From a virus: a DNA stretch of 45,423 nt. Positions within the stretch are counted from its first letter, which is position 1, and every line of letters begins with the position of its first letter. Shown one piece after another: positions 3,587-45,423 of this stretch. The notes below the pieces were generated by a model. It had not been told where the DNA came from. It ran no database searches and was given only the letters and a program-made list of their open reading frames with translations. The translations under genes were made by a program, and so were the position numbers. Location: positions 1-45,423 of IMG/VR virus record IMGVR_UViG_3300031578_000093, one strand, 5' to 3'.

Positions 3587-4330
3587 TTACTTTTTACCGG
3601 CACCCTGTAACATATTAGCTACTTGCTGTTCTGCTAACTTAATAGCTTGCTCTTGACTAATCTTTCCAGCCTCAACAGCCTTAGCATAAATAGCATTATA
3701 AACAGATTGCACTACTTTGTTAGTGCTCGGAATCTTACTACTCTTTTTTGGCTTAATTGGCTCTGGTGACTTATAACGTAGGTCAGATTCCTTGAATTGT
3801 GCTCGCTGTTCTAACTTTAGTTTAACTACAGTTTCATTTAAGAATACCTGATTCGCTTCGGCGCGTGCTACCATGCTAAGACGAGTCGCGCCAAGATGCA
3901 TAATGACAGAACGTAATTTTTCAATGCGCGCTTGCACAGTCTTAGCTAGTGTTAGTTGCTTATCTTCGATGGTATTATCTGATTCAATACGATTCTTAAT
4001 TTCAGCTACAGAGATAGTCTCTGCATTGAAAAATTCTTCTCTAGAACGAAGTGACTCATTAGAATCAATTTCGCGCACCAATTCGGCTACCTTTTTCATG
4101 GTAGCATCTAACTTTTCTTCAGGAGTTAGAATAGCCTGAATAGGCTCGATTGGAGTGATAGTCTTTTCACGGTCAGCACAAGACTTGCACATAAGAATAG
4201 AACCGATTAATTCACAATCGGTATTCTTACCGCAAGACTCGCAATCTGTTATACCGTGCTCTTTTTCTATACGTGAGCAGGTAGCACATTGTAGAGTATC
4301 TAGACGTGATGGCACAAATGAATGATTCAT
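3587..4330 (-). CDS. Zinc-ribbon plus coiled-coil protein, 247 aa from ATG 4330 (longest start is TTG 4360)
   Basis: CATC, CESCGKNTDC and CKSC motifs, then a long Lys/Glu-rich helical region; function not recognised. Confidence 0.7.
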   Translation of the reverse strand: MNHSFVPSRLDTLQCATCSRIEKEHGITDCESCGKNTDCELIGSILMCKSCADREKTITPIEPIQAILTPEEKLDATMKKVAELVREIDSNESLRSREEFFNAETISVAEIKNRIESDNTIEDKQLTLAKTVQARIEKLRSVIMHLGATRLSMVARAEANQVFLNETVVKLKLEQRAQFKESDLRYKSPEPIKPKKSSKIPSTNKVVQSVYNAIYAKAVEAGKISQEQAIKLAEQQVANMLQGAGKK

Positions 4331-4347
4331 TTTGTCTCTTATGGAAT

Positions 4348-4535
4348 GTTGACAACTCAATACTGTGTTCTACCTGCTAGATATATAATCTAACAGTTTC
4401 CCTTGAAGTTAAGTGAGTCATCCAAGGGCGACCGATTATTTCACTACTTTTTTCCAATTTGCTCGGTAGTGTGCTACTTGCTCAGGGTAGCTATTTATCG
4501 GTCCTAATAGTAGAACACAGTATTCAGTTGTCAAG
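4348..4535. repeat. 26-bp inverted repeat (4348..4373 / 4510..4535, 24 of 26 complementary) enclosing nested stems
   Basis: gttgacaactcaatactgtgttctac vs gtagaacacagtattcagttgtcaag. Inner stems: gaccgat 4430..4436 / atcggtc 4497..4503 and cccttg 4400..4405 / caaggg 4423..4428. Confidence 0.85.
4507..4534 (-). promoter_or_regulatory. Candidate sigma70-like promoter TTGACA-N16-TACTAT inside the right arm of the inverted repeat
   Basis: -35 at 4534..4529 and -10 at 4512..4507 on the minus strand; would give a roughly 170-nt structured leader for 3587..4330. Confidence 0.4.
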
Positions 4536-4843: not shown

Positions 4844-5278
4844 TTACTTCGTGTAGTCTTTAGTCCTGCTACCCTTACCGAAGAAACATTTTCTACCACG
4901 ACGCATAGCTGATTCCCTATAGCACCGCACCTTCTGTAATGTTTCACCATATGTATACTTGCGTTTGATTAGATTTATCATAATAGTTCCATCATCTATC
5001 AGAACATGCACTAGATGATGGCATCCACTACAAAGCACCATAGTGTTGTTTCTCATCTTCACGCCACCTACACCTTTCGGGTGTATATGGTGACGATGTA
5101 ATAGCTTACTTGCGTGCTTTTCTAGTGGTGTAAATCCACAAACTTCACATCTTAACTTGGCACCTTCGGAGTCCCGCTGCCCCTCCGCTCTAGGCCCGTC
5201 GCCTTCCCGCTCGGAGTCCAATGTCCCGTCCGGCGCTAAGTCGTTGCCTAGACGGTCCTTGGCCCCTTCACTACCCAT
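4844..5278 (-). CDS. HNH endonuclease, 144 aa as longest ORF; catalytic core starts near residue 44
   Basis: CEVCG...HRHHIHP...NN...CSGCHHLVH: two CxxC pairs plus a His-Asn-His core. The N-terminal roughly 43 aa are low complexity and encoded by the left repeat arm. Confidence 0.85.
   Translation of the reverse strand: MGSEGAKDRLGNDLAPDGTLDSEREGDGPRAEGQRDSEGAKLRCEVCGFTPLEKHASKLLHRHHIHPKGVGGVKMRNNTMVLCSGCHHLVHVLIDDGTIMINLIKRKYTYGETLQKVRCYRESAMRRGRKCFFGKGSRTKDYTK
5174..5212 (-). repeat. Left array of 11-bp-phased motifs (CCGCT(C) on plus = GAGCGG on minus)
   Basis: Motif starts at 5174, 5185, 5196 (degenerate ccgtc) and 5207. Confidence 0.85.
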
Positions 5279-5285
5279 ACCCTAT

Positions 5286-5314
5286 AATATACGCCCATGA
5301 GCCCCTCTTGTCAA
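5286..5314 (-). promoter_or_regulatory. Sigma70-type promoter TTGACA-N17-TATATT directed at the HNH gene
   Basis: -35 at 5314..5309 and -10 at 5291..5286 on the minus strand. The -10 ends 7 nt before ATG 5278, which implies a leaderless or near-leaderless mRNA. Confidence 0.6.
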
Positions 5315-5334
5315 GTGTCACCTAGAGAGGACAC
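5315..5334. promoter_or_regulatory. Operator-like quasi-palindrome GTGTCA-N8-GGACAC (copy a)
   Basis: gtgtcacctagagaggacac directly abuts the -35 of the HNH promoter. Confidence 0.55.
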
Positions 5335-5364
5335 CATCCATATTGTTGTATTATGATATATAAT

Positions 5365-5382
5365 AAAAAAAAAAAAAAAAAA
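5365..5382. repeat. A18 homopolymer at the dyad centre of the palindromic element
   Basis: Counted: 18 consecutive A in a very AT-rich core (about 5335..5400). Confidence 0.95.
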
Positions 5383-5413
5383 TAAGAAAGAACGAAACAA
5401 CACACTAAGGGGA

Positions 5414-5433
5414 GTGTCACCTAAATAGGGCAG
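5414..5433. promoter_or_regulatory. Operator-like motif GTGTCA-N8-GGGCAG (copy b, one half-site degenerate)
   Basis: gtgtcacctaaatagggcag; mirrored to copy a about coordinate 5374. Confidence 0.45.
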
Positions 5434-5530
5434 TGGGGTAGGACGATAGGGGTCCATATATAGAGGTATACCTAGTCAAGTTATAAGTCCACTAGAATCA
5501 GTGACTTACGAGCGGACGGCATGTTGGAAC

Positions 5531-5574
5531 GGGAGCGGGAATCGAGCGGGACGGGAGCGGAACCGGAGCGGGAA
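5531..5574 (+). repeat. Right array: four tandem 11-bp units gggagcgggaa / tcgagcgggac / gggagcggaac / cggagcgggaa
   Basis: GAGCGG starts at 5533, 5544, 5555 and 5566 (exact 11-bp phasing); weaker copies at 5510 and 5578. Confidence 0.9.
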
Positions 5575-5587
5575 TGTGACGGGATGA

Positions 5588-5607
5588 ACATCATCTAAAT
5601 AGGACAT
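5588..5607. promoter_or_regulatory. Operator-like motif ACATCA-N8-GGACAT (copy c, degenerate)
   Basis: acatcatctaaataggacat, 30 nt upstream of the -35 at 5638; its centre tctaaata matches the cctaaata of copy b. Confidence 0.4.
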
Positions 5608-5637
5608 TGATTTTTCGACTCCTAAGCGAGAAAAGAC

Positions 5638-5666
5638 TTGACAAATGACCGACCGAAGCCTATACT
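5638..5666 (+). promoter_or_regulatory. Consensus sigma70 promoter TTGACA-N17-TATACT
   Basis: ttgaca 5638..5643, 17-nt spacer, tatact 5661..5666; followed by AGGAG (5693..5697) and ATG 5706. Confidence 0.75.
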
Positions 5667-5705
5667 ATAGACAGTGGTAATTAAGCCACGGAAGGAGTCA
5701 AGCCA

Positions 5706-6080
5706 ATGAAGGTCGAGACTGGCGAAGGAACGATTCGGGCTGGTGACAAGTCGGCCACCGTAAACAAGGAATCTGTTACTTTTCAGGTTCCTAACGACAT
5801 CATCTACAAGTATCAGTGGGATGCTTTGGAAGATGGTGACATCGTTGTCGAGAGTGAGCATGTTAAGGCGGAGGAAGTTCTTAGTGCGGTTAATACCGTG
5901 CGGAAGAATAACGCTCGTCAGAACTCTTACATGTCGGCTCTCGCACCTTACAAGCCTGACACGATGAGTCAGGAAGACCGTATCGAGGTTGCTAAGCGTA
6001 ACCTCTTGCAGGCTAAGGTTCCTGCCGAACTTGTCGAGCAGACCATTTCCGCCATGCGGGCGCAGGTTGCGAGTCTCTAA
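5706..6080 (+). CDS. Hypothetical protein, 124 aa, in a stand-alone plus-strand cassette among minus-strand genes
   Basis: Own consensus promoter, AGGAG SD 8 nt upstream and an intrinsic terminator downstream; the protein is not recognisable by eye. Confidence 0.75.
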   Translation: MKVETGEGTIRAGDKSATVNKESVTFQVPNDIIYKYQWDALEDGDIVVESEHVKAEEVLSAVNTVRKNNARQNSYMSALAPYKPDTMSQEDRIEVAKRNLLQAKVPAELVEQTISAMRAQVASL

Positions 6081-6102
6081 CATCATCGTTAGTAGATAAG
6101 AA

Positions 6103-6145
6103 AATACCGGGAACGGACTAATAATCCGAACCCGGTATTTTTTTT
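6103..6145 (+). terminator. Rho-independent terminator, possibly weakly bidirectional
   Basis: aataccggg (6103..6111) pairs with cccggtatt (6131..6139), with an inner cgga/tccg stem, followed by T8 (6138..6145). The minus-strand side has only TTTT. Confidence 0.75.
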
Positions 6146-6147
6146 GT

Positions 6148-6315
6148 TTACTTGATTTTGCCTTTAATCCATTTACACTCTGTTTCCAGAATGGAAATAT
6201 AGACTATGGCAATCTCAAACTCGCTCATATTTGGAAGTGATTGCACAATTCCAATCATGATACGTTTGTGAGACTCAAGTCTCTCCAAAACCTGTGATAG
6301 TTCCAATTCTCTCAT
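6148..6315 (-). CDS. Hypothetical small protein, 55 aa (hand-translated)
   Basis: MRELELSQVLERLESHKRIMIG...; GAGGTG SD 5 nt upstream; last gene before the convergent terminator. Confidence 0.5.
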   Translation of the reverse strand: MRELELSQVLERLESHKRIMIGIVQSLPNMSEFEIAIVYISILETECKWIKGKIK

Positions 6316-6324
6316 AGTGTCACC

Positions 6325-6525
6325 TCATACAAAGAGTTTACAAGCGCCGTAAGACTTGACGATGTTGCAGTTATTCAAGTGATTGACATGGCTGACACGA
6401 TGCGCGTTTACCATTAGTCCACTGTGAGGTAAGAGAATACCTCGCAACGGAGCGGCACCACAATAGGGACAATGGCGCTTATCTCGGTGATAGTGAGCGG
6501 AACAGATTGCACACTGTTTGACCAT
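6325..6525 (-). CDS. Small zinc-ribbon protein, 66 aa from ATG 6525
   Basis: MVKQCAICSAHYHRDKRHCPYCG: two CxxC pairs. The start was chosen 4 nt after the stop of 6530..6724; the track gives a longer, overlapping start at 6660. Confidence 0.6.
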   Translation of the reverse strand: MVKQCAICSAHYHRDKRHCPYCGAAPLRGILLPHSGLMVNAHRVSHVNHLNNCNIVKSYGACKLFV

Positions 6526-6529
6526 TGTG

Positions 6530-6724
6530 TTATTCTCCATAATGACAGATAGCGGTGATACGCGACTGGAATTTGTCACGGTTGAAACGTGGGCTATCCA
6601 ATTCCATTTCAAGCGTAAGACGTTTTTGAAGGTCATAGATAGCATCGACGGCGTTCGCATTTGTAGATGCTAGCAGCGCGCCAGCGATACAGGCTGCAAT
6701 TCTCTCGTAATCTTTTCGTGTCAC
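6530..6724 (-). CDS. Hypothetical protein, 64 aa (GTG start)
   Basis: GTG preceded by a GGGAGGGG SD-like run; GC-richer codon composition like its island neighbours. Confidence 0.55.
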   Translation of the reverse strand: MTRKDYERIAACIAGALLASTNANAVDAIYDLQKRLTLEMELDSPRFNRDKFQSRITAICHYGE

Positions 6725-6852
6725 TTGTCACCCCTCCCAATCGATTCAAGATGCTGACGGATAGAGTGTAGCACGTTAGTCGTGCATAGCTTACACTTCA
6801 CTTGCACCTGCCTTGTGATTATAGACTCATTAGACTGCACCTTGAAACTCTG

Positions 6853-7014
6853 TTAGTTCTGTTTACACTTCAAACGTGTAAAGCCGTAAGGCAATTTACC
6901 TGCTTGCACGCCCAGAGTTACAGGTAGATTATCATATTCGATGGCCGACCGCAATTCTGCAATGGCCTGTTCTACCGCTCTCTTAGGACCGTCTAACACT
7001 AGAGTCTTTGTCAT
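6853..7014 (-). CDS. Hypothetical protein, 53 aa from ATG 7014 (the track start 7041 is TTG)
   Basis: First ORF downstream of the leftward promoter at 7096..7124. Confidence 0.5.
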   Translation of the reverse strand: MTKTLVLDGPKRAVEQAIAELRSAIEYDNLPVTLGVQAGKLPYGFTRLKCKQN

Positions 7015-7095
7015 TGTTGCACTTGTCCAATCCAGGTGCAATCTAATCAGTCTACAATCTATTTAGTTGTCAATGAACCCTGCGCGACTGGTAAC

Positions 7096-7124
7096 AATAT
7101 ACATCGTCACTAGTCGCTTGTCAA
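7096..7124 (-). promoter_or_regulatory. Sigma70-type promoter TTGACA-N17-TATATT for the leftward early genes
   Basis: -35 at 7124..7119 and -10 at 7101..7096 on the minus strand. Confidence 0.6.
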
Positions 7125-7126
7125 TA

Positions 7127-7159
7127 CCTTTGTAATATATATTACTTTGTATTACAAAG
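7127..7159. promoter_or_regulatory. AT-rich nested palindromes just upstream of the leftward promoter
   Basis: gtaatatatattac (7132..7145) and ctttgtattacaaag (7145..7159) are perfect palindromes; ctttgtaat 7127..7135 pairs with attacaaag 7151..7159. Confidence 0.5.
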
Positions 7160-7399
7160 TTTCATTCCATACTACTCTAATACTAATGATGATGCTGATG
7201 ATAATGATGGCATCACATCATCCACTACATCATCGGACCCCGTATGGGCATGTTGAAGGGTCCCATCTGAGGAAAACCGGAAGGGAACATTGTCCTCCAT
7301 CGATGGGTGATAGTTTTATTGATTCTAAATTACTACATCATAGAGTCTCATATCATATGGATGTTAGAAAAAATTTTGGAAAAATAATAATCTGAAGGG

Positions 7400-7419
7400 G
7401 TGTCCACTTTTGAGGACAC
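7400..7419. promoter_or_regulatory. Operator-like palindrome GTGTCC-N8-GGACAC (copy d)
   Basis: gtgtccacttttgaggacac, 38 nt upstream of the -35 at 7458; shares the aagggg(a)gtgtc left flank with copy b. Confidence 0.55.
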
Positions 7420-7457
7420 TTATGATAAGTCCTTTGGAATCAGTAGTTTAGTCCCTC

Positions 7458-7486
7458 TTGACAAGGGGGGAGAGATGACCTATACT
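7458..7486 (+). promoter_or_regulatory. Consensus sigma70 promoter TTGACA-N17-TATACT at the head of the rightward operon
   Basis: ttgaca 7458..7463, 17-nt spacer, tatact 7481..7486; same hexamers as the 5638 promoter. Confidence 0.7.
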
Positions 7487-7563: not shown

Positions 7564-8115
7564 ATGCCATTAGGTATAGTTCCGGATGAGATATTTGATA
7601 AAGAGATAGAACACGAGAAGGATGTAGTTAAGACTCCTATCGTTATTGATAAAGAGCACAGTGGTAGAAGGAATGGTGATAAGGCAGTTCCCCAAGAACT
7701 ACGTAAGTTATTAGGTGAAGAAGCTACAGTTAATGGTAGGAAGAGTGCAGTAGCATTAGGAGAATCATTTGGTGTAAGTCATGATTCAGTAGATGCATAC
7801 ACTAAAGGCGCTACATCATTAGCTACCTATCATAAGCCGCAAGAAGATTTAAAGTCCCATCTAGAAAAAGTTAAAGAACGAATCACTTCTAAAGCTAGTA
7901 GAACACTTCTCGGCGCACTTGATTCAATAACTTTAGATAAACTTGCGGGAGAAAAGCCTCGTGATGCCGCAGGCATCGCTAAGGATATGTCTGTCATCAT
8001 TCGTAATATGGAACCTGAAGCTGGAGAAAAGACACATATTGGTCCAAATTATGTATTCTATTCACCAGTGATGAAGAAAGAATCTGACTTTGAGATTATT
8101 GAGATAAAGGAATGA
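7564..8115 (+). CDS. Putative DNA-binding (HTH-like) protein, 183 aa; a regulator or small-terminase role is not resolved
   Basis: RKSAVALGESFGVSHDSVDAY looks like a helix-turn-helix; first gene after the 7458 promoter. Confidence 0.55.
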   Translation: MPLGIVPDEIFDKEIEHEKDVVKTPIVIDKEHSGRRNGDKAVPQELRKLLGEEATVNGRKSAVALGESFGVSHDSVDAYTKGATSLATYHKPQEDLKSHLEKVKERITSKASRTLLGALDSITLDKLAGEKPRDAAGIAKDMSVIIRNMEPEAGEKTHIGPNYVFYSPVMKKESDFEIIEIKE

Positions 8116-10585: not shown

Positions 10586-10793
10586 TATGGACTATCAGAA
10601 ACTTATAGATGAAGCAAATGCACGTTCTGCTAAACTCTACTTGCATAGACAGCAATTACAGATGCAAGCACAGCAGATTCAGATGCAATCTACTCAGGTT
10701 GAAATGGATATGCTTAAGTTGGATGGTGAGATTGATTCTCTAAAGAATCTTCTGGTGATGGAGTCACAGAAGAAGGAAGAGAATAATGGCTAA
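10578..10793 (+). CDS. Coiled-coil protein, 71 aa
   Basis: Gln/Leu/Met heptad-like sequence LHRQQLQMQAQQIQMQSTQVEMDMLKL. Confidence 0.55.
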   Translation: MTNMDYQKLIDEANARSAKLYLHRQQLQMQAQQIQMQSTQVEMDMLKLDGEIDSLKNLLVMESQKKEENNG

Positions 10794-11586
10794 TAGTATA
10801 TTTCTTTTTCCTTTTATTGGTGACAAAGTTACTCCCGGTCCAATAACTATAGATGGACCATTAACTCTAATTAAGAATGCTATTGGTGTAACTTCTGCAC
10901 CAGTATTAAGTTTAGTTAATAATACTCCAGCAGCAGCAGGAGCGCAGCAGTATTCACCAGGATTATCTCAGATAGGACAGGGATGGAAAACCAATGCTAC
11001 TGCTGGTAGTCAACCTGTAGAAGTTAGATGGGAAATAAGACCTGTTCAGGGCGCGGCGGCGCCGACGTTCACCTATCACCTCATGGGGCGCGTGAATAAT
11101 GGGGCGTGGGACAATCTCCTTAGGATAGATAGTGTCGGGAATGCGACATACTACGGTTCCCTAATCGGCACGTCTAACGTGTTCACAGGCGCATCGGCCT
11201 ATTTCTCTTGGAATGGACGTAGTTTAGCTTTTTCTCCTGTTGACGGCGCCGTGTCATTTACGACATCGGACCCACTGGTTAGTGGTATTCGTCTCCAGTT
11301 TGCCGCCGCCCCCACCATCGCCAGCGGTTTTGGAACTACACCATCTATTACAGCAGATTCTACAGATACAGCAGGACAAGTTAATGTAGGAACTGGTGGA
11401 GCTGCTAGTGCAGGAATAATTAATTTTGCTACTACATGGGCTTCTGCACCATTCGTAGTTGCTATGAATGCTAGCACTGGATTAGTTCTTAAAGCTATAG
11501 CTACTACTACTCAATTAACTATTACTTCTTCGGCAGCATTTACGGCTGGTGACTTAATTAATTGGATTTGCATTGGAGCTAATTAA
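10786..11586 (+). CDS. Putative tail-fibre-like structural protein, 266 aa, with an internal GC-rich mosaic segment
   Basis: Gly/Ala/Thr/Ser-rich beta-type composition. 11047..11333 is visibly GC-richer than both flanks. Confidence 0.5.
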   Translation: MANSIFLFPFIGDKVTPGPITIDGPLTLIKNAIGVTSAPVLSLVNNTPAAAGAQQYSPGLSQIGQGWKTNATAGSQPVEVRWEIRPVQGAAAPTFTYHLMGRVNNGAWDNLLRIDSVGNATYYGSLIGTSNVFTGASAYFSWNGRSLAFSPVDGAVSFTTSDPLVSGIRLQFAAAPTIASGFGTTPSITADSTDTAGQVNVGTGGAASAGIINFATTWASAPFVVAMNASTGLVLKAIATTTQLTITSSAAFTAGDLINWICIGAN

Positions 11587-12118: not shown

Positions 12119-12481
12119 ATGTTTTCTTCATTAGTTCTCTGCGTAGCACTAGCACAACCGCCACAGATAGAGACTAGGGTATTCAAGTTATCTATCAGTG
12201 CAACTGCTATTTTACAAGGTGCTGATATTGCAGAGACTATGTATCTATTAGGTAGATATCCAGGTGGGTTCCATGAGGGTAATCCACTCTTTCGACCATT
12301 AGTAACTAATCCTACTGGTATGGCAGTAGTTAAGATGGGAACTATGGTAGGAGTTGATTGGATGCTAATTAAATTACATAAGAAGCATCCAAAAGCAACT
12401 ATGTGGGTTTCATTAGCATGGACTGGTATATCTGCTTTTGCTGTGATTCATAATGCTAGGCTTCGTCATTCAGTAGAATAA
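12119..12481 (+). CDS. Membrane protein, 120 aa
   Basis: Several hydrophobic segments; EGNPLFRP motif as in the DUF5658-type family (resemblance by eye only). Confidence 0.5.
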   Translation: MFSSLVLCVALAQPPQIETRVFKLSISATAILQGADIAETMYLLGRYPGGFHEGNPLFRPLVTNPTGMAVVKMGTMVGVDWMLIKLHKKHPKATMWVSLAWTGISAFAVIHNARLRHSVE

Positions 12482-14082
12482 TGCCATTTAACGAAAAAAA
12501 CGAATGGCGTCCTACACGTAAACAGGAGAAGTTTTTAGCTCTACCAACTTCTATTAAGGAAGCTGCGTTCTTAGGTGGAGCTGGTAGTGGAAAATCCGAA
12601 TTATTATTAGCTTATCCTATCATACACAGGTGGATAGAGAATCCGCGCTTTAAGCAAGTGTTTATGCGGCGCACGATGCCAGAGTTAAAGAATGAGATTG
12701 TGCCTCGTGCTAAGATTTTGTATCGACCATTTCATGTAGACTTTAACAAGAGTGACATGGTGTTCACTTTTCCATCAGGTGCCATAGTTAAGTTAGGACA
12801 TTGTGAGCATGAGGATGATGTTCATAACTATGACTCCATGGAAATTAACTTATTCACACCTGATGAGATAACTTCTTACACTGAATGGCAGTATCTTTAC
12901 ATCGCCTTTGAAAGAGTCCGAGCCGCGACTGGAAGTGGATTACCATCAATTGTTAGATGTGCAGGGATGCCTGGTGGTATTGGGCATACATGGGTAAAAA
13001 AGAGATTTATTGATCCCTGCCTTGAAGGTGATAAGATTATTGTAGGTCGTGGTGGTAATAAACGAATTTTTATCTTTGCTACTCAGGCTGATAATCCTTA
13101 TGTTGACCCATCTTATAAACAGTCTCTTGAAGGATTACCAGAAGCTGAAAAACAAGCAAAACTTTATGGTTCATTCGATGCTTATTTAGGTCAGGTATTT
13201 GAAGAGTTTAGAGATAGAAAGTATCCAGATGAACCGGATAATGCACTTCATGTTATAGAACCGTTTGAAATACCAGAGTATTGGCCTCGTATCGTTATCG
13301 GTGATTGGGGCTATCGTGCTATGACATGGATTGGCTTTGGTGCTATTAGTCCTGATGCGCGACTTTATGTATATCAAGAGTTAACATTTATTAAACAGAA
13401 GATAGAGGAATGGGCACCTGTAGCTAAGGAATTCATTGATAAAGATAATCCCCGCATCGTTCGCTTCTGTAAATCTGCTGGACAGGATAGGGGAATGGAA
13501 CATACTATCCAACAGCAGATTGAAGATGCTATAGGTAGACCAATAGAATTATCGCGTAATAGTCCTGGCTCGAGAATAGCAGGTAAAATACTTCTTCATG
13601 AGTATCTTAGATTCAAACAGAAGGTGCGGCCCGCTGAAGATGTAAAGACTTATAATGATGATTATGCTCAGTGGATTCTTCGTAATCGCACTATGGCTGA
13701 GTATAACTCTTATCTCAAGTCGTTCACACCTTATGAGGAAGAAAAGAATCTACCTAAGTTACAAATTTTTAATACTTGTTCTGCACTGATAAATGCTATT
13801 AAAGCATGTGTATATGCCAAGAGTAGAGAGGGAGTTTCTGCAGAAGATGTAGCAGAGTTCGATGGTGATGATCCCTATGATGGCATAAGATACATGATTG
13901 ATGCTGCTGATACTTATGTTAATGATGCAAAGAGTGAATTTAATGCTATTCAGAGGCGAGAAGAACTTCTTGCTAAGTTAAGTAATGATAGAGATTTCAC
14001 TGCATTCTATCGTAATGCTAGGCATATTGAGAGAAGTGATGGAGTTCAACCTGTAAGAAGGTATCATAGGGCATCACGATGA
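12481..14082 (+). CDS. terL: Terminase large subunit, 533 aa
   Basis: Walker A GGAGSGKSE near the N-terminus; size and position upstream of the portal-like gene. Confidence 0.85.
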   Translation: MPFNEKNEWRPTRKQEKFLALPTSIKEAAFLGGAGSGKSELLLAYPIIHRWIENPRFKQVFMRRTMPELKNEIVPRAKILYRPFHVDFNKSDMVFTFPSGAIVKLGHCEHEDDVHNYDSMEINLFTPDEITSYTEWQYLYIAFERVRAATGSGLPSIVRCAGMPGGIGHTWVKKRFIDPCLEGDKIIVGRGGNKRIFIFATQADNPYVDPSYKQSLEGLPEAEKQAKLYGSFDAYLGQVFEEFRDRKYPDEPDNALHVIEPFEIPEYWPRIVIGDWGYRAMTWIGFGAISPDARLYVYQELTFIKQKIEEWAPVAKEFIDKDNPRIVRFCKSAGQDRGMEHTIQQQIEDAIGRPIELSRNSPGSRIAGKILLHEYLRFKQKVRPAEDVKTYNDDYAQWILRNRTMAEYNSYLKSFTPYEEEKNLPKLQIFNTCSALINAIKACVYAKSREGVSAEDVAEFDGDDPYDGIRYMIDAADTYVNDAKSEFNAIQRREELLAKLSNDRDFTAFYRNARHIERSDGVQPVRRYHRASR

Positions 14083-33038: not shown

Positions 33039-34253
33039 CTAACCCTTCCCCCTCATATACTCCTGCAGTTTCCCCACTACAGCATCAGGCATAATATATA
33101 CCATAGTATTACCGTGAACTTCAGTTCTTATAAATCCAGCCTCATCTAGAGTTCTAATAACTTCAGTTAGTTCTTCCCCACTAAAGTGCATCCAATATTT
33201 CTTAAGTAACATCACTCTAGATATTTCATGCGGCTGTCTCTTAAGAAGCTCCTCTATAACTAATGTCTTTTGAAATGCCATTGGACTCTTACCACCTTTA
33301 CCTAATGTAACCTTTCTTAAGTTACCTACTAGTTTCTCACAAACTGTTATCGCTTCTTCAATATTATTAGAATTCAGTTTTAACTCTGGCTTCTCACTTA
33401 ATGACAATAGCATTGCTACCTTAAGAACTGAATCACCAAATCTTTCAATAGTGCCGGTATCATCTATGTTCTCTTGAGCATCAACAGTCTTAAAAAAGTC
33501 CATATACCAATCATCGAATTTATCTAATGCATCTTCATCCCATTCAAATTCTCCTTTCAGTTTAGCGACTTCTGACATATGAATGTTTAGATCATCACGA
33601 AGTGTATTAAGTATGCTAAATGTTTCAGTCTTTCTTACTAGTGGATTGCGGCACCGCGTCTTTTCCTCTGATATAACAAACATTCTACCAATGAAGCCAC
33701 CGAATATATCTTTGTCTGGAACGAAGTCTTTAAAGTGTGGACTATTAGTCCCAAGTAGCATTGATATGATGGGATCTTTAAGTTTAAAGTTCTCCATCTT
33801 AAGTAATGATTCCCATTCATCTGGATTCCAATGTCTATCATAAAGGTCTGTTAAGATTGCCAGGGCAGCTCTATCTTCTACTAATGAAGAAGTAAACTCT
33901 GATGCTGCAACGAATCCAGAACTCTTTGTCATTACTCCTTTGCCTTCAATTGTATAAGCTGTTCCTAACTTCTTTAATATACCTTGTATAGAACTACGAC
34001 CAGAAATCATTCTTGTATTATTTACTTTCTTCACTAAGTCTTTAGCGAATTTTATAGGTAGACCTTTTCTAAGACCTGAACGAGCAAGTAGCATTACATA
34101 TATATTAGGGTAAAGCTGAAACGCACCATCTCGTTCAACCCATACATTATCCTTTGCTACGGCACTAATAGATGCTAGGAATGACCAATACCAGAAAGAA
34201 GCCGGTGACTCAAGACGTTTAGTTGCATCTAATATTTTTCTAAGCCATGTCAT
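33039..34253 (-). CDS. Large replication-module protein, 404 aa, function unknown
   Basis: Long ORF. Weak N-terminal resemblance to DUF3987-type proteins, but LLARSGLRKG is not an intact Walker A. Confidence 0.55.
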   Translation of the reverse strand: MTWLRKILDATKRLESPASFWYWSFLASISAVAKDNVWVERDGAFQLYPNIYVMLLARSGLRKGLPIKFAKDLVKKVNNTRMISGRSSIQGILKKLGTAYTIEGKGVMTKSSGFVAASEFTSSLVEDRAALAILTDLYDRHWNPDEWESLLKMENFKLKDPIISMLLGTNSPHFKDFVPDKDIFGGFIGRMFVISEEKTRCRNPLVRKTETFSILNTLRDDLNIHMSEVAKLKGEFEWDEDALDKFDDWYMDFFKTVDAQENIDDTGTIERFGDSVLKVAMLLSLSEKPELKLNSNNIEEAITVCEKLVGNLRKVTLGKGGKSPMAFQKTLVIEELLKRQPHEISRVMLLKKYWMHFSGEELTEVIRTLDEAGFIRTEVHGNTMVYIMPDAVVGKLQEYMRGKG

Positions 34254-34972: not shown

Positions 34973-35046
34973 TGGTGCTCCCGTCAAGAATCGAACTTGA
35001 ATCGGTCGGTTATAAGCCGACAGCTCTACCATTAAGCTACGGGAGC
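34973..35046 (-). tRNA. tRNA with anticodon UAU (Ile, AUA-reading), 74 nt with encoded CCA
   Basis: Hand-folded: acceptor GCTCCCG/CGGGAGC, D arm GCTT-AATGGTA-GAGC, anticodon stem GTCGG/CCGAC with loop CTTATAA, T arm TCAAG-TTCGATT-CTTGA, A73, CCA. Confidence 0.85.
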
Positions 35047-35216: not shown

Positions 35217-35383
35217 GGTTTAAACTTCTTTAACTTGATAGGATGACCAGTATGTTTTTCTAGAATTACTTTTCCACTGTAGTGGAATATTATGTGGCAC
35301 AAAAGATCATGTAAATCCATCCTTACTATCTTTCCATTTGATAATCTTACTCTAGTAGTCGCAATAGTTTTAGATGCCATCAT
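35213..35383 (-). CDS. Small protein, 56 aa (hand-translated)
   Basis: MMASKTIATTRVRLSNGK...; ATGA overlap with the polymerase stop. Confidence 0.45.
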   Translation of the reverse strand: MMASKTIATTRVRLSNGKIVRMDLHDLLCHIIFHYSGKVILEKHTGHPIKLKKFKP

Positions 35384-37890
35384 AATCCTCCAAGTTTAAA
35401 CTTCTTAAAGTTAAGCAAGTCTTTACTAATCTCTAGTTCACAGGGGATGATTAACTCATGTCTCTTCAAACTACAACAGCTAAAGTCAATCGGTCTTTCC
35501 ATTTCTTCTTTGATAATAGGAGTCCATTCATTTAGTTTCTCCTCTGGTATCATAAACAGTAAAGCATCATGTGATTCTCCCATTATCTTTATATCTGGTA
35601 TTCTTCTTCTGATACGTATTCCTCCTCCCTTAGTATCATTACTTACAGTATTCTGTGGCAAGAATGAGAATGCTTTTCTGAAAAGTTCATCACCCCATCT
35701 CTCATGAAATGTACGAACCGCACCAGATTCTATATCAAAGCCATAGAACTTAGGTGCCCTTAACATTCTATCTTGTTCCATACACTTAATAACTTCAGCC
35801 TGGAATACTTTTTTAATGTTAGGACAACGCGCATGGAATATTTCTAATGCCTTACCAGCTTTGTATTCACTCATTGATATATTTATTCCATATTTTCTGG
35901 CTTGAGTGTTAATTTCAGTTGCGGCTCGTCTTTTTTTAGCACCTAAGTGACCAGCATGACGAATAGTCTTACCTAAGAATCTTTCAGGACACTCATAACC
36001 TAGAACCTTTTTTGACCACGATTCCTCTGTGCCTCCCATGAACCAACTAGCAGTTAATGCATGTATGTCATGATGGTCATACATCTGTAACATTTCTTCA
36101 TCATTAGCTAATAGTGCTACAACGCGCGCCTCGGCCTGTGACTTATCAGCATTAATGAATACATGACCTTCATCAGCTACATAACACTCTCTAACATCAG
36201 CACCAATATCACCATGTTTAGTCTGAGTCTGGTAACTAAATCCAAAGTCTTTCTTCTTAGTCTTTTTCTTACCATCTGCATCACGGTATGACACAGTTAT
36301 CTTAGGTCTGATAGGTGGCTCCATTAAGAATGATGCACTCCTACCAGTGTCTAAGCATGGATAATATGTGGACCGCATCCTACCATCACTATCAGGCTGT
36401 GACATTAGTGATGAGCCTACGGTGCGGTTTACACGACGACCTTCTAATATTAATTCAATTACTTTTCTACGCTTCTCATCTTTAACTACATTACCTAGTA
36501 ACTGAGTTAATACTTCTTCACCAGTTCCCTGACGAAATGGAATCTTTAATAGCTCGTGTAGAACGAATGAAGTTTCTTTCCAGTGGTAGTTATCTGTATG
36601 AAAGAAATGTTCAGTTAATTGGAATAGCTCATAACGAATCTTTTCATCCCACTTAACATACTTTTCTAGAAGCGACATACGCTTCGGTTCGTCTACTAAG
36701 AATCCATTATTCTCTATGTGAAGATAGAAGTTATGCAACTCCATTATGAAGTTATAGAAGAACTTCTTTAAACCTAACTCATCTAACTCACCTTCTTGAA
36801 CTTCATCTATCTCAGTGGTTACACAAGAATCTCTAGCATTATATAAGAGTAAGTCATCAATCTTATGCTTACGATAATCGAATTCTAATCCCTCTTCTTT
36901 ATAGTATGGTTCATCAGTATGAGTGCTAGTGTTAAACGCTAAGTTAGTTGGCAACTCTGGACTAATAGTGAATGACTTCAACATAGTGTCAGAGAAGATA
37001 CTATGAAATGTGAAGCCTAATCGCCGGAGTTTATCATCATCATACTTAAAGTTCTGACCAATTATTCTCATTGATTGAGTATGGAATAACTGGCTGAGAA
37101 GAATCCATATCTGTGCTAAGTCTACATCTGGTATATCACTAATCTTACATACATCAGTGTGACCCCACAGAGGAACCGACATACCAGAATACTTATCAAA
37201 TGCTAGACCAATACATACTGGTATACAGTGAATAGCTTCAATGTCTACTGATACTTTATTCTTATTACCGATGAACGAGTTAATGAATTCATATAGATGA
37301 TTAGAGTTACGGCATATGGTAAGGTGACGTGATGGCCTTCTTATCTCAGGGAATTGAGATTGTTCCCATGCACGTTTAAAATCAAACTGCATTACATACT
37401 TCTGCCAGTAACCAGTTTTCTTACCTTCCCCTTCACCAGAGCGAAGTATATGTGCTGGATGATATGTGCCAACAACTTTAATACCATCGAATGACTGTAG
37501 AACAGAACCGCGCCACTTCTCTATCTTACTATGTCCAGTTAATGCCCATAATGCGCTACCACCAAGAGCCAAAATACAATTAGGTTTAATCTCTTTTAAT
37601 TCTGCTCGTAATGCTTTAATTTGTTCTTCTAAATCTACTCCAGCTTGTTCAGCTCTCTTAGAGAATTGAACATACTTACCCTTCTGTTGGGGAATAATCA
37701 TATACTTACTAACATTAGTCACCCAACATTGGTCACGACTGAAACCAGCATCATTACATATAGCATTGGTAAGACGACCTGATGGCCCAGTGAGAGGAAT
37801 ACGAGATTCTTCCTCTTCATAAGATGGTGCTTCTCCTACTATAGCAAGTTTCGCACCTATGGCGCCGGAGCCAGGGACGTATATCTTCAT
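35380..37890 (-). CDS. UDG-like domain fused to a family A DNA polymerase with 3'-5' exonuclease, 836 aa
   Basis: N-terminus: GEAPS...TGPSG...VTNVSKY...HPAHILR (UDG superfamily motifs). Exonuclease: DIEA, NFKYDDD, YNARD. Polymerase: DKSQAEARV (motif A), ESHDAL (motif C). Confidence 0.85.
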   Translation of the reverse strand: MKIYVPGSGAIGAKLAIVGEAPSYEEEESRIPLTGPSGRLTNAICNDAGFSRDQCWVTNVSKYMIIPQQKGKYVQFSKRAEQAGVDLEEQIKALRAELKEIKPNCILALGGSALWALTGHSKIEKWRGSVLQSFDGIKVVGTYHPAHILRSGEGEGKKTGYWQKYVMQFDFKRAWEQSQFPEIRRPSRHLTICRNSNHLYEFINSFIGNKNKVSVDIEAIHCIPVCIGLAFDKYSGMSVPLWGHTDVCKISDIPDVDLAQIWILLSQLFHTQSMRIIGQNFKYDDDKLRRLGFTFHSIFSDTMLKSFTISPELPTNLAFNTSTHTDEPYYKEEGLEFDYRKHKIDDLLLYNARDSCVTTEIDEVQEGELDELGLKKFFYNFIMELHNFYLHIENNGFLVDEPKRMSLLEKYVKWDEKIRYELFQLTEHFFHTDNYHWKETSFVLHELLKIPFRQGTGEEVLTQLLGNVVKDEKRRKVIELILEGRRVNRTVGSSLMSQPDSDGRMRSTYYPCLDTGRSASFLMEPPIRPKITVSYRDADGKKKTKKKDFGFSYQTQTKHGDIGADVRECYVADEGHVFINADKSQAEARVVALLANDEEMLQMYDHHDIHALTASWFMGGTEESWSKKVLGYECPERFLGKTIRHAGHLGAKKRRAATEINTQARKYGINISMSEYKAGKALEIFHARCPNIKKVFQAEVIKCMEQDRMLRAPKFYGFDIESGAVRTFHERWGDELFRKAFSFLPQNTVSNDTKGGGIRIRRRIPDIKIMGESHDALLFMIPEEKLNEWTPIIKEEMERPIDFSCCSLKRHELIIPCELEISKDLLNFKKFKLGGL

Positions 37891-39270: not shown

Positions 39271-39347
39271 TGGTGCCCCACCAGAGATTCGAACTCTGAC
39301 TTTACTGTTCTTAAGACAGTTGCCTCTGCCAGTTGGGCTAGTGGGGC
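39271..39347 (-). tRNA. tRNA with anticodon UAA (Leu by anticodon) but a short 5-nt variable loop, 77 nt with encoded CCA
   Basis: Hand-folded: acceptor GCCCCAC/GTGGGGC, anticodon stem ACTGT/ACAGT with loop CTTAAGA, variable AAAGT, T arm CAGAG-TTCGAAT-CTCTG, A73, CCA. The D stem has only about 3 bp. Confidence 0.75.
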
Positions 39348-45239: not shown

Positions 45240-45380
45240 TCACCACTCCTTCCTACTAACATAGTCATCATCATCACTATTAAACCAGCAAGGAAATTCC
45301 AACATTATTGCTGCACAGATTAGAATGAATAGAGTGCAATCACAGAACATTCTAAACCAATCATCTACTGTGATTGACAT
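45240..45380 (-). CDS. Small hydrophobic protein, 46 aa (hand-translated), spanning the genome junction
   Basis: MSITVDDWFRMFCDCTLFILICAAIMLEFPCWF...; starts inside the 127-bp overlap (equivalent to position 84) and links the gene trains on either side. Confidence 0.45.
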   Translation of the reverse strand: MSITVDDWFRMFCDCTLFILICAAIMLEFPCWFNSDDDDYVSRKEW

Positions 45381-45423
45381 AGCTATATCTACACTAGCTA
45401 TGATTAATGACAGTGTTAGGAGT
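45297..45423. repeat. Window-end overlap: exact 127-bp copy of 1..127
   Basis: Same sequence as the first 127 bases. Confidence 0.95.

Follow-up and report, generated by a model that had tools for sequence, protein, structure and literature searches.

A mirrored pair of phased repeat arrays at the gene-arm junction of an uncultured phage: a proposed DNA-level assembly site and tentative replication origin

IMG/VR virus record IMGVR_UViG_3300031578_000093, a stretch of 45,423 nt analyzed here over its whole length (the window), carries at positions 5158-5587 an element of about 430 bp in which two arrays of 11-nt repeats, of opposite polarity, lie on either side of an extremely AT-rich core. 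The element is real, stands well clear of shuffled sequence and is conserved in related phages, where the layout persists while the repeat motif changes. We propose that it is a site at which a nucleoprotein complex assembles on DNA, most likely a bidirectional replication origin, an assignment that we hold tentatively. We base the ranking of the readings below (an origin first, a repression loop second, a packaging site third) on anatomy, on comparison with relatives and on precedent.

The window was assembled from a metagenome as a circle: its bases 1-127 are repeated exactly at 45297-45423, so that the phage genome measures about 45,296 bp (38% GC) and its physical ends are not readable from the contig. 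The element sits exactly at the head-to-head junction where the two gene arms diverge. The replication arm encodes a SNF2 helicase, a PD-(D/E)XK nuclease, an AAA_24 ATPase, a family A DNA polymerase and a DUF3987 protein; the coordinates of both arms and of all features are collected in Table 1.

Anatomy of the mirrored arms and the AT core

The arms 5158-5256 and 5484-5587 mirror each other without gaps about an axis at 5372.5. A first-pass annotation of the window had placed the axis there, with every mirrored pair summing to 10745. When mirror sums of 10650-10849 were scanned for 5165-5245, the sum 10745 gave 52 complementary positions out of 81 and the next best sum 36, in agreement with that claim. 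A dyad scan of 5000-5800 returned a best 81-nt arm pair with 53 matches, compared with 36.6 +/- 1.4 (maximum 41) in 200 dinucleotide-preserving shuffles. The alignment of 5217-5242 with 5503-5528 (19 of 26 matches) was reproduced, as were the GAGCGG starts on the plus strand at 5510, 5533, 5544, 5555 and 5566 and the CCGCT starts at 5174, 5185 and 5207, with a degenerate copy at 5196. Two of the annotated properties hold in part. The dyad of about 430 bp is confined to the outer 100 bp or so of each side, whereas further inward 5246-5372 matches its mirror at 39 of 127 positions, which is chance level, and the 232 bp between the arms are not mirror-symmetric. The 11-bp phasing is clear in the right arm (lag-11 self-match 0.49), where Tandem Repeats Finder calls an 11-bp array at 5533-5575, but weak in the left arm (lag-11 0.31, lag-22 0.42).

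Each arm consists of an inner box of 22-26 nt and about seven 11-nt units with the core (G/C)AGCGG(G/A)A, as seen when both arms are set in 11-nt register. All 14 units share the central GG (positions 5-6), whereas their three or four spacer positions differ. A conserved core with free spacers in strict 11-nt phase is the pattern that selection would leave if a protein bound along one helix face, and is not the one expected from recent duplication or gene conversion. The motif GAGCGGGA was found three times in the whole window, always in the right arm, and no further non-coding arrays were found in the genome. The GC content of the arms is 60-68%, against 38% for the genome. With respect to transcription the two arrays are placed differently: the left array lies within the transcript that starts at the replication-arm promoter, at approximately +45 to +120, and the right array lies upstream of the plus-strand promoter at 5638, at approximately -50 to -125.

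Read outward, the box has the consensus TAAGTC-nn-TAGAATCAAC-GACTTA(C/G), which contains the consensus of integration host factor (IHF), WATCARNNNNTTR. The right box holds an exact IHF consensus, AATCAGTGACTTA, at 5496-5508. Across 25 elements, exact WATCARNNNNTTR was 5.5-fold enriched (11 occurrences in 11.5 kb, compared with 80 in 460 kb outside). The box may be an IHF-type site, read by IHF or by another conserved protein. The string CGCTAAGTCGTTGC of the left box was also present in the distant relative L110, and in locus L047 the box has TAACT...AGTTA in place of TAAGT...ACTTA.

Between the boxes, the annotated A18 run at 5365-5382 was confirmed and is the only homopolymer of at least 8 A in the window. 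The core surrounding it (5340-5400) contains the most AT-rich 40-bp (95%) and 60-bp (87%) windows of the genome, and shares the rank of least stable 60-bp duplex, with a free energy of -62.0 kcal/mol where the genome averages -75.8 +/- 4.6 kcal/mol. The replication-arm promoter is located inside the element and points left; the promoter of the other arm lies outside it, beyond the right array, and no consensus promoter directed at the right arm was found in the core. The core is flanked by copies of an imperfect palindrome, TGTCACC-N4-AGGACA. The first-pass annotation had described two quasi-palindromes mirrored about 5374; they proved instead, at 5314-5333 and 5413-5432, to be direct copies of one palindrome, with a third copy at 5587-5606. 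A G-rich stretch (5433-5456) follows copy 2.

The half-site of the palindrome at 5413-5426 reads ATTTAGGTGACACT on the minus strand, the sequence with which the promoter of SP6 RNA polymerase begins (14 nt). An SP6-type promoter at this place was considered and dropped, as no phage RNA polymerase gene was found, and the likeness is probably a coincidence.

Conserved layout and turnover of the array motif

Relatives were collected as 193 IMG/VR stretches by homology to SNF2, and 80 loci (numbered with the prefix L) were examined; L213 and L214 were reached via homologues of orf124, the first gene past the right array. In a dyad scan of each locus the best inverted repeat lay 1.5-5 kb upstream of SNF2 and had the same layout, with 39-45 of 60 positions matched (background 32-38) in L054, L065, L069, L075, L095, L100, L108/L112, L110, L117, L122 and L123. 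The common order is left array, box, C-rich tract, a long T-run or (TA)n, a palindrome fused to a TTGACA-17-nt-TATAnT promoter facing SNF2, G-rich tract, box, inverted right array and first gene. Under a strict pattern, the palindrome-promoter fusion was matched in 20 of the 81 sequences scanned and was unique in each.

The palindrome family has the consensus TGTC(C/A)(A/C)C-N4-6-G(G/T)(G/T)GACA; paired palindromes 88-107 bp apart flank the AT tract in L213, L054, L049, L104, L061 and L045, and the position of copy 3 is also occupied in L213 (5161-5180) and L214. The core homopolymer of the relatives is always a T-run on the SNF2-sense strand, reaching T24 (for example L086 1430-1460 and L049 6830-6860); some members have (TA)n in its place, and both length and type vary. 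In the window, L100, L110 and L045 one promoter lies inside the array pair and the other outside.

The array motif, on the other hand, varies from phage to phage while palindrome and box are conserved. The motifs include GAGCGGGA, CCGGAAC, GAGCAGA, TTCTCTAGG and GTTGACAC, as well as CCCCGTATTA, GTTCCGGGTTC, GGGGTATTTTT, GTTGACACAC, ATCGGC and TTTTCCCGG, among others, with periods of 10, 11 or 12. Locus L213, whose SNF2 and orf124 proteins are 80% and 66% identical to those of the window, has CCGGAAC arrays and otherwise the same anatomy, with A15+A6; L214 (63% orf124 identity) has GAGCAGA arrays in the same setting. CCGGAAC reads outward from the core both in L213 and in the distant L069, indicating that the polarity of the arrays is conserved. 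The phasing and axis that the first-pass annotation proposed to look for in related genomes are found in part: layout, dyad and polarity recur, but the motif changes, the period ranges from 10 to 12 and the dyad is not universal. A fixed architecture with a fast-changing repeat points to a specific protein-DNA recognition pair.

A scan of IMG/VR for GAGCGG-N5-GAGCGG-N5-GAGCGG gave 38 loci, none of them related to the window by blastn or tblastx, indicating that the motif itself is not the conserved feature. A simple search for GACTTA/TAAGTC pairs was too noisy to be used. Nucleotide searches with the element and the first 20 kb against 50,697 phage records gave no match, and no close cultured relative was found, protein matches reaching at most about 30% identity. 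Exact-protein matches came from the same phage only, with one single-nucleotide polymorphism at 5293. Among 185,579 species genomes scanned, two contigs of metagenome-assembled genomes (MAG) were the only matches; they did not reveal the host, and no plasmid-like carriage in isolates was seen. Distant homologues of the window's DNA polymerase belong to phages whose genomes, of about 44 kb, likewise consist of two arms, among them a Desulfofustis phage and Microcystis phage Mel-JY34; in Mel-JY34, a distant cultured relative by DNA polymerase, the divergence region is without arrays.

The AT core has C-rich tracts (CCCCTCTCCCC) to one side and G-rich tracts (GGGGAGAGGGG) to the opposite side in L095, L108, L122, L123, L046, L093 and L213, and in the window at 5433-5456 and 5259-5279. 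The G-rich strand of these tracts always reads outward, and the tract on the replication-arm side forms the first 5-30 nt of the transcript. Priming through an R-loop is one idea of what they may do.

Origin reading, candidate readers and rival readings

Three known architectures had been offered by the first-pass annotation: an iteron-type origin with an unwinding element, a centromere or autoregulatory array, and a packaging or terminus region. The first of these is the best fit to the phased repeats, the AT-richest core, the IHF-consensus box and the motif turnover under a constant layout. In the mechanism that we infer, a phage-specific protein would bind, in each arm, the approximately seven iterons that recur at an 11-bp phase and so share one helix face, with opposite polarity in the two arrays. 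DNA bending of the IHF type, at the box on the inner side of each array, would fold the arrays toward the center, and the 60-bp AT core with its A18 run would melt, aided by transcription from the strong internal promoter 5314..5286. Two helicase rings could then be loaded back to back, giving forks co-directional with transcription of both arms. The palindromes flanking the core would serve as operators through which a conserved regulator, likely the 183-amino-acid helix-turn-helix protein p183, controls the early promoters.

The protein proposed as reader of the arrays is the DUF3987 protein, whose predicted fold is that of an AAA+ ATPase of the minichromosome maintenance (MCM) type with a C-terminal winged helix. 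Its AlphaFold2 model has a predicted local distance difference test (pLDDT) score of 85.6, a winged helix at amino acids 326-387 and no MCM N-terminal domain. Foldseek returned MCM subunits as top matches to the model (E 9e-9 to 1e-5, probability 1.0); searches against PDB by sequence and by profile gave nothing, the predicted fold alone being informative. About 1,500 homologues were found in metagenomes, and entropy was 1.52 in the winged helix compared with 0.78 in the rest of the protein. L065 and L069, which have different array motifs, share 65% identity in the ATPase part and 27% in the winged helix. Between lineages with different motifs the identity of the winged helix is 27-42% against 54-65% for the ATPase, a comparison confounded by phylogeny. 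Within the subgroup sharing the CTGTGCGC motif the winged helices are 70-99% identical, with the exception of L082 (56-59%), whose motif is one base off. The MCM-like helicase is the best candidate reader of the arrays.

Other candidates were considered. Since its recognition helix is conserved, p183 would suit the conserved palindrome rather than the variable arrays. As a small terminase it found no structural match at E <= 0.001, the best weak matches being helix-turn-helix DNA-binding domains, and this assignment was rejected. The orf124 family and a Zn-ribbon/coiled-coil protein (3587..4360) are encoded nearer the element and have no obvious hypervariable head. In a comparison of the window with L213, which differ in array motif, no protein stood out as an outlier in divergence (SNF2 80%, Zn-ribbon protein 68% and orf124 66% identical). 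The earlier statement that no cognate binding protein is recognizable can thus be softened: the MCM-like helicase, the helix-turn-helix protein and the orf124 family are candidates by prediction.

Several observations weigh against an origin. For a recognition helix, helix 3 of the DUF3987 winged helix is unusual in being acidic (EELTEVIRTLDEAG), and the faster divergence of this domain could simply reflect weaker constraint. The gene lies about 16 kb from the element, while the origins of Staphylococcus pathogenicity islands (SaPI) and of plasmids adjoin rep; no Rep-family gene was found beside the element. DnaA boxes (TTWTNCACA) number five in the genome, the chance level, with none in 5000-5800. 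About 100 bp containing promoter and operators separate the arrays from the AT core, and an array at +45 to +120 of a strong promoter would equally suit a roadblock or a loop repressor. One subgroup of relatives has only one-sided, irregular CTGTGCGC repeats and a few members are without clear arrays, indicating that the dyad is not obligatory. The GC skew changes sign at about 5 kb, where it is fully confounded with gene orientation.

The second possibility, which we consider doubtful although it comes next in rank, is a repression loop acting as an early switch. A phage-specific regulator, oligomerized on both arrays, would close a loop of about 340-400 bp and silence the inner, replication-arm promoter; IHF-type bends and a stiff or curved A-tract would help closure, and the array at the outer promoter would modulate the other arm. 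The position of the two promoters, one inside and one outside the array pair in four phages, is what such a switch would call for, and the left array occupies a classic roadblock or loop position. The element is dense with regulatory sites, its palindromes adjoining the -35 hexamer in the 20 sequences with the fusion, and motif turnover is also typical of repressor-operator pairs. The iterons of R1 parC, moreover, serve both as operators and as a centromere (PMC2241845). However, no regulator with a variable DNA-reading head was found, the clear helix-turn-helix protein p183 having a conserved recognition helix. No integrase or lysogeny module was found among the open reading frames (ORFs) scanned, so that no selection for heteroimmunity is expected; relatives with one-sided arrays cannot form the loop; and 5-7 phased sites per side around the least stable central duplex exceed the needs of known loops. 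An attP or intasome reading, to which arm-type sites and IHF sites would be suited, was dropped, as no integrase was found.

A packaging or terminus site is improbable. The arrays would be bound by the packaging machinery, and the core between them would contain either a cleavage site or a short terminal repeat in direct orientation, so that each mature genome end would carry an inward-facing promoter. P1 pac and lambda cosB combine repeated sites with IHF, and the fast co-evolution of site and reader would also fit pairs of small terminase and pac. The contig is circular and its ends are not given by the assembly; the arms diverge here, as at the ends of podophages with convergent arms, and the SU10-type adaptor match suggests a podovirus. 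The likeness to T7-like terminal arrays, on which the first-pass annotation had drawn, did not survive comparison. In the T7 concatemer junction rebuilt from NC_001604 we found 13 copies of CCTAAAG and no CTTTAGG, with copies also within the terminal repeat and a spacing in SRL of mostly 13 bp. The T7 repeats are thus all direct, whereas those of the window are inverted, have an 11-bp spacing and do not occur in the core. In addition, about 7 kb separate the element from the gene of the large terminase (12481..14082), no small terminase was recognized, the contig ends of the relatives listed are scattered rather than within the element, and the core holds an operator-controlled promoter.

Very unlikely is a partition centromere, of the type II ParR/parC or TubR/tubC kind, serving a plasmid-like carrier state. 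The comparison with plasmid R1 parC made in the first-pass annotation is correct as to the 11-bp period and the bracketed promoter, and the copy number is shared too; but the arrays are inverted rather than direct, the spacer is far longer, no ParM, ParA, TubZ or ParR-like gene was found among the 40 ORFs scanned, neighbors included, and the scan of species genomes gave its two MAG contigs without carriage in isolates.

Least probable of all is that box hairpin and repeats act as RNA in the 5' leaders of two divergent transcripts: inverted arrays around divergent transcription would put the same motif in both RNAs and the box can form a 6-9-bp stem, for which the paired change in L047 may be noted, but the right arm is upstream of its promoter with no core promoter toward it, the fold is no better than that of shuffles (z = -0.21), Rfam gave no match and a period of 10-12 nt is that of the DNA helical repeat. 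As one array is transcribed and the other is upstream of its promoter, these null results indicate that the symmetry is a property of the DNA.

Returning to the origin, a larger picture can be drawn which, taken as a whole, is rather unlikely: a large, uncultured family of tailed phages with a licensing system resembling that of archaea and eukaryotes, in which an MCM-like helicase-initiator would recognize fast-evolving iterons through its own winged helix and be loaded as two opposed rings on the mirrored, helically phased arrays, with the help of IHF-type bends and a poly(dA:dT) core, and iteron turnover would act as a specificity barrier between co-infecting relatives.

If the element is an origin, it would provide a replication start that can be read from sequence in a phage family without a cultured member, and a variable cis-code paired with a candidate self-loading helicase of the MCM type; a 430-bp fragment together with one or two proteins would then suffice to test directly how the helicase is loaded and how origin specificity evolves. 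If it is a repression loop, it would be the master early/late switch of these phages. Either way, variable phased arrays combined with an IHF-like box and a conserved palindrome make a searchable layout, of use in orienting and annotating related metagenomic genomes.

Neighboring features and comparison with known systems

Table 1. Features of the element, its surroundings and the candidate reader genes (positions in the window)
Feature	Position	Strand	Description
Replication arm	leftward from 5278 via wrap point to ~32.6 kb	-	its promoter lies inside the element
HNH endonuclease ORF	4844..5278	-	HNH domain only at amino acids 44-91
Left array	5158..5234	-	units at 5224, 5213, 5202 (GAGCGGGAAGG), 5191, 5180 (GAGCGGAGGGG), 5169 (CAGCGGGACTC) and 5158
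Left box	5235..5258	-	reads GGACCGTCTAGGCAACGACTTAGC; mirror partner of right box; degenerate IHF-like site
Replication-arm promoter, sigma-70 type	5286..5314	-	TTGACA (5314-5309), 17-nt spacer, TATATT (5291-5286); 11/12 matches
Palindrome copy 1	5316..5333		TGTCACCTAGAGAGGACA; 1 nt from -35 hexamer of replication-arm promoter
AT-rich core	5340..5400		includes A18; candidate DNA-unwinding element or rigid, curved spacer
Palindrome copy 2	5415..5432		TGTCACCTAAATAGGGCA; 99 bp from copy 1, on opposite side of AT core
Right box	5484..5509	+	TAAGTC-CACTAGAATCAGT-GACTTA-C (TAAGTC-N13-GACTTAC)
Right array	5511..5587	+	seven 11-nt units at 5511, 5522, 5533, 5544, 5555, 5566 and 5577; core GAGCGG(G/A)A
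Palindrome copy 3, degenerate	5587..5606		70% identity; outside right array, ~30 bp upstream of -35 of P(+)5638
Promoter of the other arm, sigma-70 type	5638..5666	+	TTGACA, 17-nt spacer, TATACT; serves orf124 arm
Other arm	5706 to 32463	+	large terminase, SU10-type adaptor, structural genes
orf124	5706..6080	+	first gene past right array; family-wide small-protein family; possible array reader
Second divergent promoter region	7096-7486		P(-)7124..7096 and P(+)7458..7486, each 11/12 matches
p183, 183-aa helix-turn-helix protein	7564..8115	+	recognition helix conserved; in 45 relatives
DUF3987 protein	33039..34253	-	predicted MCM-like AAA+ ATPase, C-terminal winged helix; candidate initiator-helicase
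tRNA genes Ile(TAT), Leu(TAA)	34973-35046, 39271-39347	-	inside replication arm
Family A DNA polymerase	35380-37890	-	N-terminal uracil-DNA-glycosylase-superfamily domain

The left arm overlaps an HNH endonuclease ORF whose first 43 codons are encoded by left box and left array. Its only in-frame starts are ATG 5278 and TTG 5221, and since ATG 5278 is 8 nt past the -10 hexamer, an mRNA translated from it would be leaderless. In the closer relative L213 the corresponding place is without an HNH gene, which indicates an insertion, apparently of the homing type, beside the array and with a reading frame that extends into it.

On the other side, 44 ORFs homologous to orf124 were found in relatives, in either orientation and sometimes as two copies flanking the element; searches of orf124 against Pfam, PHROG and NCBIfam gave no match. 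The orf124 family ends in a motif (G-V-P-x-E-x-A-x-x-Q-V...) similar to the C-terminus of the Zn-ribbon/coiled-coil protein (3587..4360, minus strand), and the two may share a docking peptide. Directly after orf124, at about 6100-6145, a GC-rich hairpin followed by T8 faces opposed small genes (6148-7041) and has the look of a terminator acting in both directions; it is also a point at which several metagenomic contigs of the same phage break. In the second divergent promoter region a palindrome copy (7396-7415) and a box copy (7421-7446, IHF consensus at 7438) lie upstream of P(+)7458..7486, without arrays, and an (ATG)n-like run occupies 7184-7209.

Initiator sites of opposite polarity flanking a central AT stretch between divergent replication genes are found in herpes simplex oriS/oriL and in archaeal oriC, with its origin recognition boxes (ORB). 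These origins differ from the element in belonging to other domains of life with other initiators, and in having one to three sites per side rather than phased arrays. With the SRL/SRR repeats of T7 the element has in common that short-repeat arrays flank a central segment and that strong early promoters are close by.

Plasmid R1 parC consists of two sets of five 11-bp repeats around a promoter, in direct orientation, 39 bp apart and beside parMR; one dimer binds per iteron in a U-shaped complex, and the array is both operator and assembly platform (PMC2241845). The element likewise has two iteron sets phased at 11 bp around a promoter, whereas its sets are inverted and separated by about 230 bp that include an AT core.

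In SaPI origins, 6-12 short iterons are arranged half on each side of an AT-rich region in opposite directions, and are read by the winged helix of self-loading Rep helicases of superfamily SF3 or SF6 (MCM-type), with specificity that differs between elements (PMC9371898). The element shares the two opposite iteron sets flanking an AT-rich region, and its phage encodes a predicted MCM-like ATPase with a C-terminal winged helix. It differs in three respects. The SaPI origin is immediately downstream of rep, whereas the helicase gene here is distant; SaPI iterons are penta- or hexanucleotides in a compact origin rather than 11-bp-phased units; and in the element box, operators and promoter come between each array and the AT core.

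PMC6070618, together with the title of Rozgaja 2011 cited there, describes E. coli oriC as having two oppositely oriented arrays of DnaA sites, 9-mers 2 bp apart, and an IHF site. Opposed arrays at an 11-bp phase are thus common to both, and the IHF site of oriC bends the DNA toward the unwinding element (PMC6070618). The element differs from oriC in having no DnaA boxes and a motif that is phage-specific and variable; its AT core is central, while the unwinding element of oriC is lateral, and IHF-like boxes are present on both sides. By analogy of architecture, SaPI origins and oriC are the closest systems. What sets the element apart from them is an array pair without DnaA boxes and with a distant helicase gene, with about 100 bp of regulatory DNA from each array to the core and with symmetric IHF-like boxes.

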